Positions 12,781 to 42,951 of a DNA stretch of 50,582 nt are shown here, one piece after another. The notes beneath the pieces were generated by a model. The model was given only the letters and a program-made list of their open reading frames with translations, did no database searches and was not told the DNA's origin. A program made the translations under genes and the position numbers. How positions within the stretch are numbered: the stretch's first letter is position 1; each line of letters begins with the position of its first letter. The DNA comes from Candidatus Micrarchaeota archaeon (GTDB lineage Archaea; Micrarchaeota; Micrarchaeia; Anstonellales; Bilamarchaeaceae), in NCBI GenBank assembly GCA_964435235.1, contig CAYSXZ010000057.1:1-50582 (forward strand), in the 5' to 3' direction.

Positions 12781-13602
12781 TTACACCAAAGTAAGAAGGT
12801 TCACAAAACAGCTAGCAGCATCCTCAAAAAACTCCTTTCCGAATTTATAAATCTTTGATACATCTGGCATCATAGATTTTCTTATGTCTGTTTCTATGCG
12901 TTCGAAATTTTTCTCAGAGCTAATATACTCAATTGTTTTTTTAACAACCTCTTTTCTCCAACCCTCAAAACCATACGTCTCTGCTTTTTTTCGAAGTTCC
13001 TTGGCGGTCGGTAACTCTTTGAGTACGTTTTTTATATAAAGGATATCGAATAAATCCGTTCCTTTTAATGAATCCCTTTTATCAATACGATCAAGCGTTG
13101 CGACGATCTTGTCTGCAAATATCTCGCGAGGTTGTTCTACAAGAAGCGGATAAAATTCACCCTTTGTGATTATCGGAAATAGAGATATCTGATCCCCAAT
13201 TTCTATTACACCGCGTATCTCTGAATTTTTCTTCCAATACTTTATTCTCTCTACTACTTTCAAATTTTTGTTGTTGTTTCTCGCTTTTTCTACATTGTAT
13301 TCCTTTTCTAGCACGTCACAAATAGCACTAACAACCCACGTAAGGTTTACTTTTTTATCTTTTAAGACAAAATCGAGATCATACGAATACCGCGGCGAAG
13401 AGTATATAAAATGAAGTGCATTTCCTCCTTGAAAGACAATATTCTCTGAAAGATTCTTCTCTTTTGCTATCCTAAACGTAGCGTCCCTTGCGAGTTCCTC
13501 CTTTTCTCTAAGTACATTTATCTTTTGCTTTAATTGATGGGTAGATATTTTCATCACACCTCTATTGCATTTCTCGATATTAATAATATTACATGTTGCC
13601 AT
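12781..13602 (-). CDS. Nucleotidyltransferase AbiEii/AbiGii-like (type IV toxin family, DUF1814)
   Basis: FQGGNALHFIYSSPRYSYDLDFV matches the GG(T/N)AL...R.S.D(L/I)DF core of AbiEii nucleotidyltransferases. An alternative start is at 13554. Confidence 0.65.
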   Translation of the reverse strand: MATCNIINIEKCNRGVMKISTHQLKQKINVLREKEELARDATFRIAKEKNLSENIVFQGGNALHFIYSSPRYSYDLDFVLKDKKVNLTWVVSAICDVLEKEYNVEKARNNNKNLKVVERIKYWKKNSEIRGVIEIGDQISLFPIITKGEFYPLLVEQPREIFADKIVATLDRIDKRDSLKGTDLFDILYIKNVLKELPTAKELRKKAETYGFEGWRKEVVKKTIEYISSEKNFERIETDIRKSMMPDVSKIYKFGKEFFEDAASCFVNLLTLV

Positions 13603-14960: not shown

Positions 14961-14993
14961 TTCAGTTGTCATTTTTTGTATAATTTCGAAAAA
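14961..14993. repeat. Direct repeat copy A flanking the Fic gene
   Basis: ttcagttgtcattttttgtataatttcgaaaaa. It recurs at 15961-15994 with a 1-nt indel. Confidence 0.9.
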
Positions 14994-15873
14994 GATATCT
15001 CTTGTACTCTTTAACGTATCTTTTGAAAAACCATTGTAAAAAGATTTCATCCATTTTTTTAATTTGTGCTCTTTCTAAAGCATTATAATAACCAACTCTT
15101 TTTTCATAGAGAATATTTAGCATTGGATATCCGTGTTTATGTAAAATAAAATTCATCATTAGCCTACTTATCCTTCCATTACCATCTGTAAATGGGTGTA
15201 TGGTCACAAATTTTAAATGTGCTAAAGCAGCTAATTCTACTGGATGCAATTTCTTCTTGTTTTTATTGTACCACCTAAAAAACTCTCTTAATAAAGGATA
15301 AATTTCAACTGGAAATGGTGGTGTAAATTTACTTCCTGATATAGCCACTTGATGTTCTCTAATCCTTCCAGCTATCTCTGGCTTGGATGCTTCAAACAAT
15401 TTTTTATGCCAATATAAAATAACTTGCAAAGTTAAGTCTTTCTCATATTGTAGCATTTCATAAAAGACCTTTTGATGTCCTTCTGCCTCTTTAACATCAT
15501 ACAAAGGTTTAAGCTTTGGTGTTATTCCTTTTTCCAGTAAATCTGCTGTTTCTCTTAACGTTAATTTTGAACCTTCTATTTTTTGTGTATCATAAGTAAA
15601 TCTGATTGAAAAAGTTTCAATTTCTTTTTCTCTTGCAGCTTTTGGTAATTGCTTAAACTCTTTAGAAAAATTTTTCTTTATTCTATCAAATAGCGGATAC
15701 CACTTCTCTCTATAAATTTCAGAAAGAAATTCTCTTTTTATTTCATCAATATTTTTTGGTAGTGTTTTGCCTATATATTTTTCCCTTTTCTCTACTTTTT
15801 TACCTTTTCTTATGGTGTGCTCTAAATAGTAATAAGTTTGTCTTCCTATAACTTTCTTTCTTATACTTACCAT
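14962..15873 (-). CDS. Fic/DOC family protein (AMPylase-type)
   Basis: HPFTDGNGRISRLMMNFIL is the canonical Fic motif HPFx(D/E)GNGRxxR. Start taken at the ATG at 15873 (MVSIRKK). An aaatttataaata TATA-like box lies about 25-35 nt upstream. Confidence 0.9.
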   Translation of the reverse strand: MVSIRKKVIGRQTYYYLEHTIRKGKKVEKREKYIGKTLPKNIDEIKREFLSEIYREKWYPLFDRIKKNFSKEFKQLPKAAREKEIETFSIRFTYDTQKIEGSKLTLRETADLLEKGITPKLKPLYDVKEAEGHQKVFYEMLQYEKDLTLQVILYWHKKLFEASKPEIAGRIREHQVAISGSKFTPPFPVEIYPLLREFFRWYNKNKKKLHPVELAALAHLKFVTIHPFTDGNGRISRLMMNFILHKHGYPMLNILYEKRVGYYNALERAQIKKMDEIFLQWFFKRYVKEYKRYLFRNYTKNDN

Positions 15874-15960
15874 AATAAAATTTACCCCTACATATTTATA
15901 AATTTTAGTATTTTTGATAAAAAGTAGAGATAAAGACAAAAGCTTTTTTAAGAATAAAAT

Positions 15961-16520: not shown

Positions 16521-16541
16521 AATGTATCAAAAGTTGCTCAC

Positions 16542-16628
16542 GCCCTCATAGTCTAGCCTGGATTTGCATATCAGAAAGGACACGGGCTTCCGGAGCCTGT
16601 GAGCTGGGTTCGAATCCCAGTGAGGGCG
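16542..16628 (+). tRNA. tRNA-Arg(CCG) with a 13-nt non-canonical intron in the D-loop
   Basis: Hand-folded. Acceptor gccctca/tgagggc plus discriminator g. D stem gtct/ggac. Anticodon stem cgggc/gcctg with loop ttCCGga. T arm ctggg-ttcgaat-cccag. It is 87 nt rather than about 74 because of the extra D-loop sequence. Confidence 0.85.
16564..16576 (+). other. Predicted 13-nt BHB intron in the tRNA-Arg D-loop
   Basis: Central helix ctgg (16558-61) / tcag (16571-74), with 3-nt bulges att and aaa. Cutting after the second bulge nt gives the D-arm GUCU-AGCCUGGAUA-GGAC. Confidence 0.6.
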
Positions 16629-16660
16629 TTTTAATTTTAAAATTAAATTGAAAAAATATT

Positions 16661-25185: not shown

Positions 25186-26078
25186 GGACAAAATTGCGAA
25201 ATTTTGTCCGCATTGGAAATCATCAAATTTTCAATGCAACTAGATATGCAAACCACCTAGAGGATGGCTAGGCTTATGCCCGCACGGTCACGCGGCAAGC
25301 TGCGATAAGCCTTGGGTAGCCGCAAGCAGGCTTTGAACCAAGGGTCTGACTGCGCACAGTAATGTGCAGCAACTCCCCGAAATGAAGCGTCTTAGTAGGG
25401 GAAGGAAAAGAAACCAATAGGGATCCGGTTAGTAACAGAGAGTGAAAGCCGGAGAGATCAAGCTGAATTCCTCTGCAGTAATGCAGAGGTAGATGTGGCG
25501 GGGTGCAACCTCCTTCTCATCCGAAGTTGCTTGGAACAGCGCACCTTAGCGGGTGATAGTCCCGTAGGAGAAGGAAGGAGGTGCTAACCAAGAAGAGTAG
25601 TGTCTCTTGGATAAGAGGCATGAAGATGGGTGTATCAACATCCAATTCTAAATATGGGGCATAAGACCGATAGCGAAACAGTAGCGCGAGCGAACGCCGA
25701 AAAGTACCCCGGAAGGGGTGTGAAAAGATCCTAAAACTAGGTGGTGACAGCATGATACGGCACGAAAGGGCAGGGCTGCAGAAGCGACCTCTGGTAACGG
25801 AGGAAGCGATGCAGTTTAACCAGTGTCGTGTCTTTCTTCTCGAAGCAAGAGCCAGGGAGTTTGTGGGCGTGGCGAGGCGAAAGCCGAAGCGAAAGCGAGT
25901 GTCCGCAGCGCAGCAATGCGTGAGGGACGTCGTGGTAACTCGCGACCAGTCACTCTCACAAGACCCGAAGCCATTGTGATCTACGCCCGAGCAGGACGAA
26001 GCCAACCTGACGGTTGGTGGAGGTCCGCAACTAGTGGTAGTATATTCTCCTTAGGTGACTTGGGTGTAGGGGTGATAG

Positions 26079-26123
26079 ACAACCTTTGTCCAGGTTTTTA
26101 GGAAGGGACAAAAGTTGGTCAGT
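26079..26123 (+). other. BHB mini-intron I1 (45 nt, loop AGGUUUUUAGGAAG), 23S domain II
   Basis: Central helix tgat (26073-76) / gtca (26118-21). Bulges aga and gtt. 12-position stem caacctttgtcc/ggacaaaagttg (one C-A mismatch). Removal leaves GGGGUGAUAG|UCCUGUCGAAC. Confidence 0.75.
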
Positions 26124-26970
26124 TCCTGTCGAACGTGGCAATAGCGGGTTCCCCTCGAAATGTGTCTCAGCACAGCGTCTCTGGAGAATGATGTGGAGGT
26201 AGAGCACTGATTAGACAGAGCGGTACCGAAAGGTATCACTGTCTTTTCAAACTCCGAATGCCACATCTTCGTAGAAGGAGGCAGTGGGGTTGCCGGAGTA
26301 AGTTTGGCGACCTATTCGTGAACGAACGTACGTAAGGTTAAGGACCCTAAATTCTGACTAAGTGTTAATCGCAAAGGAGTCTCCATTCGAAAACAACCGG
26401 GAGGTAGGCTTAGAAGCAGCCATCCTCTAAACAACGCGTAATAGCGGACCGGTCGAGAGTGCAGACTCTGAAGATTCACGGGACTAAGTCAGATTCCGAT
26501 ACCTTACCCAGGCCAAAAGCCTTGGACTAGGGGGGCGAACGGGAAGCGTAGAAGTTAGGCCGTGAGGTCTAATGGAGCGACCTGTTATGAATATCCTGGT
26601 GTTAGTAGCAGCATATCTGGATGAGAATTCCAGACACCTTATAGAGCAAGGTTTCCTCAGCCACGTTCTTCAGCTGAGGGTTAGGCGATCCTAAGAACTT
26701 AGGTAACTCCGAAAGTTCGAAATTAGGGAAGCCGGTTAATATTCCGGCCCTGCAGAGGTAGGTGCGGCAACGCGTGCCATTCTCTGACTCCTTTGGATAG
26801 GTGAAGCGGCTACGGCCGTCTGAGGAGAGTAAACTCGTGGAGTCTCATTATGAGGAGAAGCGGGCGAAACTCTAAGGGGAAACTTCATCGAATCCAGGGG
26901 ACCATGAAAAACGAGAATGGATCGATCCTCTGCAATCGTACCGAGAACTAGTACAGGTGCTCTAGCTGAA

Positions 26971-27017
26971 ATCCAAAGAACAGGTGTTCTTTGTCTGTCC
27001 TGTTTTTTGAACAGTAC
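26971..27017 (+). other. BHB mini-intron (47 nt, different loop UGUUCUUUGUCUGU)
   Basis: Central helix gctg (26965-68) / cagt (27012-15). Bulges aaa and aca. 13-position stem. Removal gives ACAGGUGCUCUAGCUGAA|AAGGCUAAGGUG, the same length as the reference ACAGGUGGUCAGGUAGAGAAUACCAAGGCG. Confidence 0.65.
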
Positions 27018-27239
27018 AAGGCTAAGGTGTGGCAGGATAACTCAGACAAGGGAACTCGGCAAGTTAGCCCCGTATCTTAGGTAGAAGGGGTGCCTTCGCA
27101 TCGGTATGCGGAGGTCGCAGTGACAAGGGGGGAGCGACTGTTTACCAAAAACACAGGTCATCGCAAAGCCGAAAGGCTGTGTATGATGGCTGACGCCTGC
27201 TCACTGCCAGTACCTGAACGTCCGTTTCAAAGCTTTGAA

Positions 27240-27270
27240 AGCGGGTGCTTTCAAAATTGCCCGCCAAGGC
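27240..27270 (+). other. Candidate 31-nt BHB intron near the helix-68 apex
   Basis: Central helix tttg (27234-37) / caag (27265-68). Bulges aaa and gcg. Inner helix gcgggt/tgcccgc. The mature sequence cannot be validated from memory. Confidence 0.3.
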
Positions 27271-27323
27271 GGACAACGGAAAGAAGGGCTGGTAAAGAGC
27301 GGGGGTAACTCTGACCCTCTTAA

Positions 27324-27360
27324 CATTCGGCTTCCTAGCTACTAGCCGAATGAAGAGAGA
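27324..27360 (+). other. 37-nt hairpin insertion splitting the universal CUUAA|GGUAGCG block (E. coli 1928/1929)
   Basis: ccctcttaa-[cattcggct tcctagctact agccgaatg aagagaga]-ggtagcg. Helix tctt/gaga, with a 2x2 internal loop in place of a clean 5' bulge (relaxed BHB). Confidence 0.6.
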
Positions 27361-27729
27361 GGTAGCGTAATACCTCGCCGCTTAATTGGCGGCTTGCATG
27401 AATGGCGTAACGACTCCCCCACTGTCCCTGTCTGGGACCTGGTGAACTCACTGTCCGGTGAAGATGCCGGAGACTTCCAGAGGGAAACGAAGACTCCATG
27501 GAGCTTTACCATAGCCTAATGTTGTGGTGCGAGGTTTGCTACCAAGAGTAAGTGGGAGCCATCGAAGCAATTCTTTCGGGAATTGTGGAGGCGAAAGTGT
27601 TACACCACTTAGTAGATCTTGCATTGCTTACCCGCAAGGGAACAGCGTTAGGTGGATGGTTCGGCTGGGGCGGTACGCCCTCGAGAAAGGAACAAGGGCG
27701 CCCAATGCTCTGCTCAGTCCGGTCAGAAA

Positions 27730-27772
27730 AAACTTTTCACAAGGTTTTTAGGAAATGGGAAAAGTTTTTGAA
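27730..27772 (+). other. BHB mini-intron I2 (43 nt, loop AAGGUUUUUAGGAAAU)
   Basis: Central helix caga (27724-27) / tttg (27767-70). Bulges aaa and aat. Removal gives UCCGGUCAGAAA|UCGGAUG, matching the archaeal GGGUCAGAAAUCC-type hairpin (about E. coli 2305-2311 by my count). Confidence 0.7.
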
Positions 27773-27940
27773 TCGGATGTAGAGGGTGAAAGACAAATGC
27801 AGGGCTGACTGTGTTCCTAAAAGCGTGGAACGCAGAGACGAAAGTCGGGCTTAGCGAACCTTGATATCCTTTTGATGGGGATTCAAGCTGTCAGACAAGC
27901 TACCCTGGAGGTAACAGGCTCGTCGCGGGCGAGAGTACAC

Positions 27941-28012
27941 AAAACTTTGCTTATGTTTTCTTAGGGCAAAGTTTTATCAAAGGTCCTTAGAGTAAAACTC
28001 AAGACCGTACAA
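27941..28012 (+). other. About 72-nt two-hairpin insertion at the helix-89 apex (E. coli 2477/2478)
   Basis: Helix gtac (27935-38) / gtac (28007-10) with bulges aca and aaa. Removal gives CGAGAGUACAC|AUCGAC versus E. coli CAAGAGUUCAUAUCGAC. The inner helix is not contiguous, so the boundaries are tentative. Confidence 0.5.
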
Positions 28013-28067
28013 ATCGACCCCGCGGTTTGGTACATCGCTGTCGGCTTGGGACATCCTGGTGGTGCAG

Positions 28068-28110
28068 ACGTTTTTTGCCAGATTTTTAGGAAGGGCAAAA
28101 ATCGGCATAA
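28068..28110 (+). other. BHB mini-intron I3 (43 nt, loop AGAUUUUUAGGAAG), helix-91 apex
   Basis: Central helix gtgc (28062-65) / gcat (28105-08). Bulges aga and aag. Removal gives CCUGGUGGUGCAG|GAGCCACCAAGG, 25 nt as in E. coli CCUGGGGCUGAAGUAGGUCCCAAGG. Confidence 0.75.
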
Positions 28111-28131
28111 GAGCCACCAAGGGTTGGGTTG

Positions 28132-28176
28132 ACATGAATTAGTCAGGTTTTTAGGAAGGGCTAATTCATGGCCCAA
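28132..28176 (+). other. BHB mini-intron I4 (45 nt, loop AGGUUUUUAGGAAG) inside the A-loop (helix 92)
   Basis: Central helix gggt (28126-29) / gccc (28171-74). Bulges tga and aat. 12-bp stem. Removal gives GGGUUGGGUUG|UUCAUCCAUUAAAG, which restores the UGUUC loop. Confidence 0.8.
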
Positions 28177-28282
28177 TTCATCCATTAAAGTCCCACATGA
28201 GCTGGGTTCAGTACGTCGCGAGACAGTACGGTAGTATCTTCTGGAAGCGTTGCCTCTTGAGAGGAAGGATCCTTGAGTACGA

Positions 28283-28325
28283 ACAGATTTTGTCAGGTTT
28301 TTAGGAAGGACAAAATCTGGTATAA
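28283..28325 (+). other. BHB mini-intron I5 (43 nt, loop AGGUUUUUAGGAAG) inside the sarcin-ricin loop (helix 95)
   Basis: Central helix gtac (28277-80) / gtat (28320-23). Bulges gaa and aag. 11-bp stem. Removal gives AGUACGA|GAGGAAC. Confidence 0.8.
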
Positions 28326-28545
28326 GAGGAACGGGGATCCGGCGCCTCTGGTTTACCGGTTGTGAATTGCACCGCCGGGCAGCTACGCGCCATGTCGATA
28401 AGACCTGAAAGCATCTAAGGTCGAAGCGACTCTCAAGACGAGGAGGCAAATGCCGCGGATAGCAGATCCGTTTGATAGGACCGGGGTGTAAGTGGTAAGG
28501 GAAACCGAGCCATTCAGCCTGCGGTTACTAAAGGCTTATTTCGAA

Positions 28546-28590
28546 ACCCATTACTGACCGTTGGGTACTTCCTTTTCTGTTATCTTTTTG
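28546..28590 (+). other. 3' strand of the pre-23S rRNA processing stem
   Basis: Complementary to 25113-25185 (see the 5' strand entry). Confidence 0.75.
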
Positions 28591-28711
28591 ACATTCTTCG
28601 ATTTTCTAATTTTCCGAAGTCAGTAAGTCAGTGAAGCCGATTACAATTACTATTTTAAATCTAACTTTTGAAAAGTAGTCATCTTTTCTTAGAACTTAGA
28701 GGGTAGATAAT

Positions 28712-31123
28712 ATGAAAAATATAATGTGGTTTAAAGAGCTAACAAAAAATAATTTGCTCGAGGCAGGAGGAAAGGGCGCGAATCTTGGTGAAATGTATGG
28801 GGCCGGTTTTCCTGTCCCTCCAGGATTTGTAGTAACAAGCGGTGCATATTTCAAACATCTTGATGCAAATAATCTCCGCGAGCCGATAACAAAGATTCTT
28901 ACTGGTCTTGATGTTAATGACCCAGAAGCATTGAACAGAGCATCAGAAGAAATAAAAAAACTCATAAAGGAAGGACAGATTCCAAAGGATGTTTATGACG
29001 ATATAATAAATGCTTACAGAAAATTAAACGAGATGGCTGGAAGACAAGTTTATGTCGCGGTAAGGTCGAGTGCAACGGCAGAAGACTTGCCTACTGCAAG
29101 CTTTGCTGGTCAGCAATCTACCTATCTAAATATTATTGGAGAGAAAGAAGTCGTGAATGCAGTTAAAGATTGTTGGGCATCGCTATTTGAACCGAGAGCC
29201 ATATTTTACAGAGTACAAAACAAGTTTGAACACATGAGAGTAGGGCTTGCCGCCGTTGTGCAGATGATGATCCAGAGCGAAAAGGCCGGCGTTGTCTTTA
29301 CAGTCGATCCGTTAACCCAAAATAAGGACATTATTTCTATAGAATCTGCATACGGACTCGGAGAGGTTGTTGTCAGTGGTTCCGTTACCCCAGACACCTA
29401 TAGAGTGAATAAAAATAACTTCGAGATAATCGATAAAAAGATAGCAAAACAACCATGGATGCTTGTAAAGGTAGAAGGAAAAAACAGGAAGGTTGAGATA
29501 AAGGACGAGATGCAAGGAAACCAAAAACTATCCGACACAGAAATAAAGGACCTAGCGAAGGTATCTGCAAGAATAGAAGAGTATTACGGCTTTCCACAGG
29601 ATATAGAATACGCGTTCGAAAAGGGGAATCTTTACATTGTACAATCAAGACCAATAACTACATTGAGTAAAAAAGCAGAGATACAGGAAAAGAAGCCTGA
29701 AGCCGTAGGGACGGCGGAGGAACGGAAAAGCGAGGAAACGAAAGCAAAAGGCGAAGGCAAGGTAAGCGAGACAAAGATCCTGTTGCAAGGGCTTGGAGCA
29801 TCCCCAGGTATCGGCATCGGTCCTGTCAAGATAATAAAGTCAGCACAGGAAATAAAAAGAATGGAAAGCGGAGACGTTCTAGTAACTGAGATGACAACGC
29901 CTGATTTTGTACCTGCGATGAAAAGGGCGGTTGCAATTGTAACAGACACTGGCGGAATGACTAGTCATGCAGCAATAGTTTCAAGAGAGCTTGGCGTTCC
30001 ATGTATTGTAGGCACACAAAAAGCAACAAGTATTTTGAAGGAAGGCCAGACCATAAGCGTTGATGGAACGCATGGTATTGTTTACGAAGGAGTGCTTGCG
30101 CAACCGGTAAAGAAGGAAGAGAAGGCCGCAGTAGTAGGCGGAGTTATATATCCACCGGCGACTGGAACTAAGATTTATGTAAATCTTGCTGATGTTGATC
30201 AAGCAGAAAGAATAGCTGCTATGCCTGTAGACGGTGTGGGTCTTCTTAGGGCCGAATTTATGATAGCAGATATAGGAACCCATCCAAAAAAATTGATAGA
30301 AGAGGGAAGACAGGAAGAGTTTATAGATAAGCTAGCAGCTGGCCTGAGAAGATTTGCGGCTGCTTTTTATCCACGACCAGTAATATATAGAGCAACTGAT
30401 TTCAAAACAAACGAATATAAAAATCTTAAAGGTGGGGAAAAGTACGAGCCCCACGAAGAAAATCCAATGATGGGATATCGCGGTGCGGCAAGATATATAA
30501 AAGAGCCAGAAGTATTTAAGATGGAATTAAAGGCAATAAAAAAGGTGAGAGACGAATACAATCTTAGAAACTTATGGCTTATGATCCCATTTGTAAGAAA
30601 GATCGGCGAACTACGCGCTATAAAACAAGCACTATATGAAGTTGGTATATACCGCACAAAGGATTTCAAACTCTGGATAATGATAGAAGTTCCAAGCACC
30701 GTATTCCTTATCGACAGGTTCTGCGAGGAAGGGATAGACGGGGTTTCTATAGGGAGCAACGACCTAACACAGCTAATACTAGGTATAGATAGGGATAACG
30801 CAACAATGGCGAAGGACTTTGACGAGAGGAACGAAGCTGTTCTGCGCGCTTTGCAAAAGGTAATAACTACATGCAATAAATATGGAGTAACCTGTTCGCT
30901 ATGCGGGCAGGCACCTAGTGTTTATCCAGAATTTGCTGAAAAGCTAGTTGAATATGGCATAACGAGCATTTCTGTTAATCCTGATGCGATAGAAAGAACA
31001 AGATGGATAGTACAAAGTGCAGAGCAGAAGATAATCTTAAAGAGACTTGCAAGACTTACTTCGCAAGGACCAACTGAGGAAAAATTAACTACACTCCAAG
31101 CAACATGGACAGGGGACGATTAG
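28712..31123 (+). CDS. ppsA: Phosphoenolpyruvate synthase (pyruvate, water dikinase)
   Basis: GGKGANLGEM ATP-grasp N-terminus, phosphohistidine motif TGGMTSHAAIVSRELGVPCIVG, and the C-terminal PEP-utilising GSNDLTQ motif. Confidence 0.95.
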   Translation: MKNIMWFKELTKNNLLEAGGKGANLGEMYGAGFPVPPGFVVTSGAYFKHLDANNLREPITKILTGLDVNDPEALNRASEEIKKLIKEGQIPKDVYDDIINAYRKLNEMAGRQVYVAVRSSATAEDLPTASFAGQQSTYLNIIGEKEVVNAVKDCWASLFEPRAIFYRVQNKFEHMRVGLAAVVQMMIQSEKAGVVFTVDPLTQNKDIISIESAYGLGEVVVSGSVTPDTYRVNKNNFEIIDKKIAKQPWMLVKVEGKNRKVEIKDEMQGNQKLSDTEIKDLAKVSARIEEYYGFPQDIEYAFEKGNLYIVQSRPITTLSKKAEIQEKKPEAVGTAEERKSEETKAKGEGKVSETKILLQGLGASPGIGIGPVKIIKSAQEIKRMESGDVLVTEMTTPDFVPAMKRAVAIVTDTGGMTSHAAIVSRELGVPCIVGTQKATSILKEGQTISVDGTHGIVYEGVLAQPVKKEEKAAVVGGVIYPPATGTKIYVNLADVDQAERIAAMPVDGVGLLRAEFMIADIGTHPKKLIEEGRQEEFIDKLAAGLRRFAAAFYPRPVIYRATDFKTNEYKNLKGGEKYEPHEENPMMGYRGAARYIKEPEVFKMELKAIKKVRDEYNLRNLWLMIPFVRKIGELRAIKQALYEVGIYRTKDFKLWIMIEVPSTVFLIDRFCEEGIDGVSIGSNDLTQLILGIDRDNATMAKDFDERNEAVLRALQKVITTCNKYGVTCSLCGQAPSVYPEFAEKLVEYGITSISVNPDAIERTRWIVQSAEQKIILKRLARLTSQGPTEEKLTTLQATWTGDD

Positions 31124-41928: not shown

Positions 41929-42951
41929 ATGTCGATGGGGGGCGTGAACAACAAAAAACTTATGCTGCATTATTCAACGGCAAATTTAACAAAGAAAGAA
42001 AGAGGAATAGCGCAGGCTATTCTTCCTCTTCTTGAAGAAAAACTTGAGCATTCGGAACGAGTTAAGAAGAGCGCAGAAGAATTTCAAAAGATAGCAAAGA
42101 AGATTACGCGTTTCAGACTTTTTGAAACCCTTCGTAAGATGGGGTGGGAACCTAAAGATGCTTCTAAGACTGCACTTAATAGAGTAGTTCCAGACCTTAT
42201 ACCGAAGCGTACCATGGAGGAGGCGTGGGAGTTAGTTACGAAGAATATGGGTCTTGTAGACGCCGCAATAACTTACTCGAAATTGAATGATTATTTGAAA
42301 TGGGATAGTGAATATGTGCGAAGCATAATAATAGAACAGTTGTTCATGACGGCTCTTTACTGGGATAAAGAAAAAGGTGCGTTTTCTACGTATTTCTTTT
42401 CAACGATGAAAAAGTGCAGAAACCACCTAAGAGAGAAAGCGAGTCTGATACGATTGCCGATGCATGTAATCGGAAAACTGAATAGGATGGATATTGAAAA
42501 ACATAAAGAGCCAAACATCCGATCAAGCGAGCTTGCCAAACGCATGAATGTAAAGCCAGAAAAATTAAATGATCTAACGAAGCTGAAAAAAATACGTTAT
42601 GCAAAGGTATTAAATCTAAGCAGGCTTTTATATTCTGAGACAGATGAAAGCGATGATAAGATCTCGATGAGATTTAACTTAATAAAAGAAAACGAGCCAG
42701 ACTTAACCAATGCAATCGATCAAAAGAACCTAAAAAGAATTATCGAAAGAGTATTGAAGACTCTTGAACCACGCGAAGCAAAGGTTTTGAGGATGCGCTA
42801 CGATTTAGATGATGAAGGTGGAAAAACACTGGAAAAATGCGGTAATGAGTTTGGCGTTACTAGAGAAAGAGTAAGACAAATAGAAACTTGCGCACTTAAA
42901 AAACTCCGCCATTCGGCCTACTCTAAGATTCTCAGAGAATTTATTCTTTGA
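41929..42951 (+). CDS. Bacterial-type RNA polymerase sigma-70 family protein
   Basis: Region 2/3.0-like FSTYFFSTMKKCRNHLREKASLIRLPMHVIGKLNRM (compare [30 protein letters not shown]). Region 4.2-like LEPREAKVLRMRYDLDDEGGKTLEKCGNEFGVTRERVRQIETCALKKLRH. Confidence 0.85.
   Translation: MSMGGVNNKKLMLHYSTANLTKKERGIAQAILPLLEEKLEHSERVKKSAEEFQKIAKKITRFRLFETLRKMGWEPKDASKTALNRVVPDLIPKRTMEEAWELVTKNMGLVDAAITYSKLNDYLKWDSEYVRSIIIEQLFMTALYWDKEKGAFSTYFFSTMKKCRNHLREKASLIRLPMHVIGKLNRMDIEKHKEPNIRSSELAKRMNVKPEKLNDLTKLKKIRYAKVLNLSRLLYSETDESDDKISMRFNLIKENEPDLTNAIDQKNLKRIIERVLKTLEPREAKVLRMRYDLDDEGGKTLEKCGNEFGVTRERVRQIETCALKKLRHSAYSKILREFIL

Follow-up and report, generated by a model that had tools for sequence, protein, structure and literature searches.

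A probable protein-spliced BHB mini-intron inside the A-loop of a Micrarchaeota 23S rRNA gene, and its kin at other sites of the same gene

The window analysed here, a stretch of 50,582 nucleotides from a Candidatus Micrarchaeota archaeon, holds on its forward strand, at 25236-28549, a complete gene for archaeal large-subunit rRNA, recognised by the Rfam covariance model for archaeal 23S rRNA (RF02540) with a score of 2260.8 bits over model positions 1-2987. No 16S gene lies within the window, the 23S gene being unlinked from it. Some 160 nt 3' of the 23S gene begins the gene for PEP synthase (PpsA), and this 23S-PpsA order (window 25236-31123; loci L006-L061) is kept across many Micrarchaeota genomes, from which it supplied 25 related 23S sequences for comparison. 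The nearest relatives of the PEP synthase, at 63-80% identity, come nearly all from Candidatus Micrarchaeota or Bilamarchaeaceae, the latter placed by the NCBI taxonomy in Microcaldota (Micrarchaeota) within the kingdom Nanobdellati, i.e. DPANN. The G+C content is around 39% for the genome and 51% for the rRNA.

Nine mini-insertions of 37-72 nt, which show as 37-74 extra bases in the covariance-model alignment, interrupt the 23S gene; they are numbered i1 to i9 below. The insertion at the A-loop, i8, occupies 45 nt at 28132-28176 of the forward strand. In the Rfam LSU alignment it appears as 48 bases in place of the three-base UUC of the helix-92 A-loop consensus, and a MAFFT alignment with the 25 Micrarchaeota genes places it at exactly 28132-28176. 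All 25 relatives read AGGGTTGGGTTG followed directly by TTCATCCAT(T/C)AA in the A-loop region, the same exons being present in the window 45 nt apart. The empty-site junction, GGGTTGGGTTG joined to TTCATCC, is identical in all of them, and since the flanking bases differ the boundary cannot slide. The initial annotation had proposed a 45-nt intron whose removal joins 28131 to 28177, and that junction proved exact, both by the 25 empty sites and by the bulge-helix-bulge (BHB) cut positions described below.

Excision of 28132-28176 yields GGGUUGGGUUG joined to UUCAUCC, which is the sequence of the 25 intron-less relatives and has the spacing of the Rfam consensus. The joined exons fold as a UGGGU/AUCCA stem closing a UGUUC loop, that is helix 92, bearing out the earlier statement that this region as encoded has no UGUUC A-loop and that removal of the 45 nt builds one. 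The string TGTTC occurs only twice in the encoded gene, at 26985 (inside another insertion) and at 27812 (in an unrelated hairpin); both lie outside any A-loop, so that an intact A-loop elsewhere in the gene, the alternative which the annotation itself had raised, was looked for and is not present. Alignment to the E. coli A-loop, GGCUGUUCGCC (containing Um2552 and G2553), positions i8 between the equivalents of G2553 and U2554. The earlier view that a working ribosome could not tolerate an insertion at this point is a reasonable one. The site falls within the invariant helix-92 loop, UGUUC, rather than at a variable helix tip, where a bacterial-type intervening sequence (IVS) or an expansion segment would be looked for. 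Two independent JGI metagenome assemblies contain this 23S sequence with full (100%) identity over 3314-3720 nt, so that the A-loop insertion is not an assembly artefact; in a third assembly, from Logan, identity is confined to the last 151 nt of the 23S gene, downstream of the insertion.

The ends of i8 have the form of a BHB splice motif. Exon 1 contributes the strand GGGU (28126-28129), which forms all four pairs, in exact register, with GCCC (28171-28174) near the 3' end of the intron; once spliced, the same exon strand is the 5' strand of helix 92. The 5' bulge UGA (28130-28132), unpaired in both the MFE and BHB conformers, has its predicted cut after G28131, coincident with the empty-site junction. 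The 3' bulge AAU (28175-28177) is assigned by register, with a predicted cut after A28176, and is closed by weak A-U and G-U pairs in the MFE structure of an isolated 81-nt fragment. Between the two, the arms CAUGAAUUAGUC (28133-28144) and GGCUAAUUCAUG (28159-28170) form a 12-bp inner stem h', present in the MFE structure (MFE z-score -3.15), and enclose a 14-nt apical loop, AGGUUUUUAGGAAG (28145-28158), that corresponds to invariant columns in the family alignment A1 and is near-invariant in the intron family discussed below. The BHB rule is thereby followed in the 4-bp helix GGGU/GCCC, in the opposite 3-nt bulges and in comparative junctions which fall after the second bulge base. The outer helix of the strict hBHBh' form is a different matter: a U28125/U28178 mismatch abuts the 3' bulge, and only an interrupted pairing of GGGU (28121-28124) with AUCC (28180-28183) is possible in the precursor. 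Energy evaluation of the BHB conformer and the exon fold underlie this pairing and the assignment of AUCC, in the mature molecule, to the 3' strand of helix 92. With its outer helix missing or interrupted, the i8 motif belongs to the relaxed HBh' type. In the isolated fold of the 81-nt RNA by itself, the BHB conformer reaches -20.5 kcal/mol against -25.8 for the MFE, making it 5.3 kcal/mol less stable; the MFE retains the 5' bulge.

The significance of the motif was assessed through a register test, which asks whether the 4-bp helix sits where the boundaries obtained from empty-site relatives demand. This holds for eight of the gene's nine insertions, the chance being 0.021 per register for random position pairs from the same gene, with 18 registers allowed. 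Searching the entire window de novo for BHB shapes was unspecific, giving 43 matches on the plus strand against 19-39 in shuffled sequence, and support for BHB therefore leans on the register test rather than on motif discovery. An automated check of the relatives found strict in-register BHB motifs in at least 14 of 32 mini-insertions, a figure that is a lower bound and not counter-evidence since the routine accepted only a flawless beginning of the stem and was sensitive to the edges of the alignment.

All nine insertions can be excised to give the consensus, and an in-register BHB helix is present in seven of the eight others. The first, i1 (45 nt, 26079-26123, forward strand like all those that follow), lies in a hairpin loop near position 903 of the Rfam model, has the central helix UGAU/GUCA and is matched by a homologous copy at the same site in the related gene L051. 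Comparison and register define i2 (47 nt, 26971-27017), which differs in sequence and has the helix GCUG/CAGU. The sole insertion lacking an in-register BHB is i3, 46 nt by comparison (27229-27274), for which the register is ambiguous; a 31-nt BHB intron (27240-27270) and the palindrome CAAAGCUUUG lie inside it, its site is also filled in L038 and L039, the L039 version being doubled to 88 nt, and the whole is perhaps a composite, with one intron nested in another. At the junction of CCCUCUUA and AGGUAGCG (about E. coli 1927/1928) stands i4 (37 nt, 27323-27359), a relaxed BHB with helix CUCU/AGAG and one extra unpaired A. Next come i5 (43 nt, 27730-27772; helix CAGA/UUUG), in which the loop has the variant form AAGGUUUUUAGGAAAU, and i6 (72 nt, 27941-28012), placed in the helix 89 loop by alignment and register, with two hairpins and the helix GUAC/GUAC. 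The loop of helix 91 holds i7 (43 nt, 28068-28110; helix GUGC/GCAU). Downstream of i8, the sarcin-ricin loop is interrupted by i9 (43 nt, 28283-28325), removal of which joins GAGUACGA to GAGGAACGG; this site is empty in the 25 relatives and in the metagenome contig L085, and filled in the contig L084.

Five of these insertions, i1, i5, i7, i8 and i9, have in common the loop (C)AGGUUUUUAGGAAGG, found as an exact TTTTTAGGAAGG at 26095, 28083, 28148 and 28298 and as a variant at 27745. The 3' tetranucleotide of each copy (GUCA, UUUG, GCAU, GCCC and GUAU, in the same order) complements its own exon target. A covariance model, R1, built on alignment A1, finds matches only in the 23S genes of the window, L084, L085 and L051 within around 1 Mb of Micrarchaeota DNA, and no Rfam family matches the mini-introns. 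In L051 four sites are occupied by members, and three of these are vacant in the window, which together with the five window sites places the family at no fewer than eight distinct 23S positions in four genomes. Homologous intron sequences are thus found at non-homologous host positions, as in a transposed BHB-intron family. The stems vary from member to member but do so in concert: pairing is kept in 96.7% of stem cells and double changes are seen in seven of nine pairs, the observed score being reached in none of 500 shuffles.

A run of five Ts is present in every family loop (28148-28152 in i8, with equivalents in i1, i5, i7 and i9); as oligo-T is an archaeal terminator signal, five such runs inside an rRNA gene are odd. 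A K-turn or K-loop was considered for the conserved loop and rejected, judged by eye, as the A-G, G-A, G-A stack beside the stem misfits the GA/AG consensus. The loop sequence UUUUAGGAA has a 9-nt complement in a 23S hairpin loop, UUCCUAAAA, at 27814-27822, and UAGGAAG of the family loop a 7-nt complement in the i4 loop, CUUCCUA, at 27331-27337. These could be kissing contacts, but both lie within chance, at about 0.1 by rough estimate.

The initial annotation had suggested comparing the site in related genomes, and besides the 25 empty examples a metagenome scan for both A-loop exons separated by 25-55 nt yielded two contigs of JGI Ga0078972, L084 and L085, each with a homologous 45-nt intron. 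Exon identity to the window is 98.9% for L084 and 89.4% for L085, compared with 91.7% for L051. The two orthologues show four substitutions, three in the stem, all of which preserve pairing, and one in the loop. The loop change is that of L084; in L085, G28136-C28167 is replaced by A-U and U28143-G28160 by C-G, and no pair is broken. The helix 91 intron offers a parallel at the splice motif itself, the central helix of i7 reading GUGC/GCAU in the window and GGGC/GCCU in L085, an exon change matched by an intron change. This compensatory change is direct comparative support for the predicted helix between exon and intron.

Occupancy of the sites does not follow host relatedness. L084 lacks i5 despite its 98.9% exon identity to the window; the exons are strongly constrained, and the intron complement of the two genomes is not the same. 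L051 is nearer to the window than is L085, yet its A-loop site has no intron, and the sequence nearest to L085, L033 (92.0%), has none of these introns. Window i7 is 86% identical to its counterpart in L085 (1922-1964) and only 72% to that in L084 (1084-1124), a pattern suggesting intron replacement or exchange. Occupancy so patchy and so at odds with relatedness is suggestive of mobility; by sequence comparison, introns seem to have been gained and lost and, probably, exchanged horizontally. Larger elements are also present in these genes: positions 1-451 of L084 hold a large intron with a LAGLIDADG_3 ORF, just before the equivalent of window 27397 (between GCA and TGAATGG), which the window lacks. 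LAGLIDADG ORFs occur as well in the 23S insertions of L039, L014 and L052, the LAGLIDADG-bearing insertions in the relatives measuring 225-909 nt; such ORFs are confined to these large elements.

We consider it highly probable that 28132-28176 is an archaeal BHB intron of a Micrarchaeota 23S gene, spliced by proteins and belonging to a family of ORF-less mini-introns. Its class, which the initial annotation left unnamed, is that of the protein-spliced BHB introns of archaea and not of self-splicing ones; the paralogous family with its conserved loop had likewise escaped that annotation. By analogy with archaeal splicing, from which we infer the reaction, i8 almost certainly undergoes cutting by the splicing endonuclease and religation of its exons. 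In the precursor, exon GGGU (28126-28129) would pair with intron GCCC (28171-28174), the 12-bp intron hairpin stacking on one side and the two bulges exposing the splice sites. The tRNA/rRNA splicing endonuclease would then cut between G28131 and A28132 and between A28176 and U28177, and an RtcB-type ligase would seal the exons and probably circularise the 45-nt intron. The freed GGGU could re-pair with AUCC (28180-28183), so forming helix 92 with its universal UGUUC A-loop. The family as a whole has reached at least eight sites of the 23S gene and would pass between lineages. Among the 30 ORFs scanned in the window there is no gene for EndA (the splicing endonuclease) or for RtcB or another ligase.

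Cleavage at the BHB might conceivably proceed with no religation of the exons, leaving a fragmented mature 23S as with bacterial IVS or the helix-98 excision of Pyrococcus furiosus. The latter provides one archaeal precedent for fragmentation (PMC7758197), and the ligation step in the present organism is deduced from other archaea. However, the P. furiosus case concerns a peripheral helix and was reported as the first archaeal example, whereas here the nick would fall between G2553 and U2554, inside a functional loop of five nucleotides, and nine such elements would divide the 23S into ten pieces; moreover BHB cleavage yields ends that are normally joined by the archaeal ligase (PMC4090602 and established knowledge). 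We judge fragmentation improbable. That mature rRNA should retain the 45 nt as an expansion segment is more improbable still. DPANN and Asgard rRNAs do have unusual insertions, which is nothing specific to this one, and retention would split a universally conserved A-loop with an element that is absent from 25 relatives having identical exons, whose boundaries follow the BHB cut rule and which has a similar counterpart inside the sarcin-ricin loop of the same gene.

At first sight nine insertions in one gene resemble damage, and a decaying, non-functional rDNA copy or an assembly chimera might be suspected. Against this, the sequence recurs unchanged in the two JGI assemblies and stands at the phylum's syntenic 23S-PpsA locus; at every conserved position the exons agree with the Rfam consensus, and they are nearly those of L084 while the introns vary, and every insertion can be removed to leave the consensus. 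We hold this to be very unlikely, on a par with retention. Least probable of all, to the point of being negligible, is a self-splicing group I or group II intron or other ribozyme: Micrarchaeota LSU genes do harbour group I introns (PMC6125680), but 45 nt is much too short, the structure is a single hairpin, and a search of 28060-28335 against Rfam families at E values up to 10 returned only the LSU model and chance matches, with no group I/II ribozyme core. Nor does i8, at 45 nt and with no ORF, encode a homing endonuclease.

A protein-spliced BHB intron has enzymatic precedent in the same phylum. The epsilon-2 endonuclease, found in ARMAN-2 (Candidatus Micrarchaeum acidiphilum) and crystallised from a Micrarchaeota species, cuts both strict and relaxed BHB motifs in vitro (PMC3239211, PMC12397907), relaxed motifs serving as substrates for epsilon-2 and (alpha-beta)2 enzymes alike (PMC3239211). 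In ARMAN-2, 56% of tRNA genes are interrupted (PMC3239211). The papers on ARMAN-2 treat tRNA and do not describe rRNA mini-introns, and the enzyme of the window's genome would be encoded outside the window. The window contains a tRNA-Arg(CCG) gene (16541-16629) that, likewise, has a D-loop insertion, of around 14 nt and at a non-canonical intron position; the gene is misread by ARAGORN and scores only 18.4 bits with the Rfam tRNA model. This insertion fits a host having a broad-specificity endonuclease of the epsilon-2 kind.

The archaeal rRNA BHB introns of Desulfurococcus mobilis, Staphylothermus marinus, Pyrobaculum, Aeropyrum and Thermoproteales 16S genes resemble i8 in occupying central conserved rRNA sites, in having the BHB at the exon-intron junction and in the switch of partners by exon bases after splicing. 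The differences are a DPANN micrarchaeon instead of a crenarchaeon as host, nine ORF-less introns in one gene, the position inside the A-loop and an apical loop conserved among members at different sites. Two short 23S introns of about 55 nt are said to have been described from S. marinus by Kjems and Garrett in 1991. The rRNA BHB introns of Crenarchaeota lie at conserved sites and vary in presence or absence between close relatives (PMC3608112, PMC4496867). In the Thermoproteales, Fujishima et al. 2010 are quoted as reporting near-identical short BHB introns at different positions and in different host RNAs of tRNA type, read as transposition with a mechanism probably at the DNA level (PMC4090602). 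The i8 family is alike in having similar short BHB introns at different positions, yet its sites lie within one rRNA gene and not in tRNA genes, its hairpin loop is the most conserved part and the 3' tetranucleotide of each copy pairs with its own target exon.

The group I and LAGLIDADG introns of DPANN LSU genes (Nawrocki, Jones & Eddy 2018) share with i8 the same genes and neighbouring conserved sites, but i8, with 45 nt, has neither a ribozyme core nor an endonuclease gene. BHB introns beside group I introns in DPANN LSU genes are mentioned in passing (PMC6125680), and 16S introns have been noted for ARMAN-2 and Mia14. Bacterial 23S IVS, processed by RNase III with no ligation, are likewise short hairpin insertions removed from the transcript; unlike i8, which stands in an invariant loop and has a BHB, they take the place of the tips of variable helices and leave the rRNA fragmented. 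In the full-text literature, a scope that takes in few of the older subscription papers, we found no account of a BHB mini-intron at either the A-loop or the sarcin-ricin loop, or of a family bearing this loop.

Protein-spliced introns can, on this evidence, occupy the very nucleotides that hold A-site tRNA and bind translation GTPases, so that ribosome function would depend on the tRNA-splicing machinery, with up to nine splices per 23S molecule. One loop, a co-varying stem, a target-matched 3' tetranucleotide and occupancy that differs at 99% exon identity make up a compact natural system, suited to the question of how ORF-less archaeal introns gain their sites, a question that the Thermoproteales tRNA introns pose as well. 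On the practical side, insertions of this kind defeat rRNA-based primers and probes for DPANN archaea, as well as the automated annotation of their rRNA.

The near-invariance of the 14-15-nt loop invites a speculation that we put forward tentatively, thinking it on balance unlikely: the loop may be a functional handle and more than a mark of common descent, the introns being non-autonomous mobile elements recognised through it by a trans-acting factor, either for insertion or for late splicing. Such a factor might insert the elements into rRNA sites where four exon bases pair with the 3' end; alternatively, it might keep the A-loop, sarcin-ricin loop, H89 and H91 of pre-ribosomes out of action up to a splicing step that comes late and is coordinated. 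If true, this would give a first handle on the spread of ORF-less BHB introns. In viral contigs, the one match to a scan for the loop with its flanks had no hairpin and was put down to chance. Elsewhere on this DPANN archaeal contig stand genes for an AbiEii-type toxin, for a Fic-domain protein and for a protein of 340 aa having a Sigma70 region 4 domain of bacterial type (12781-13602, 14962-15939 and 41929-42951).
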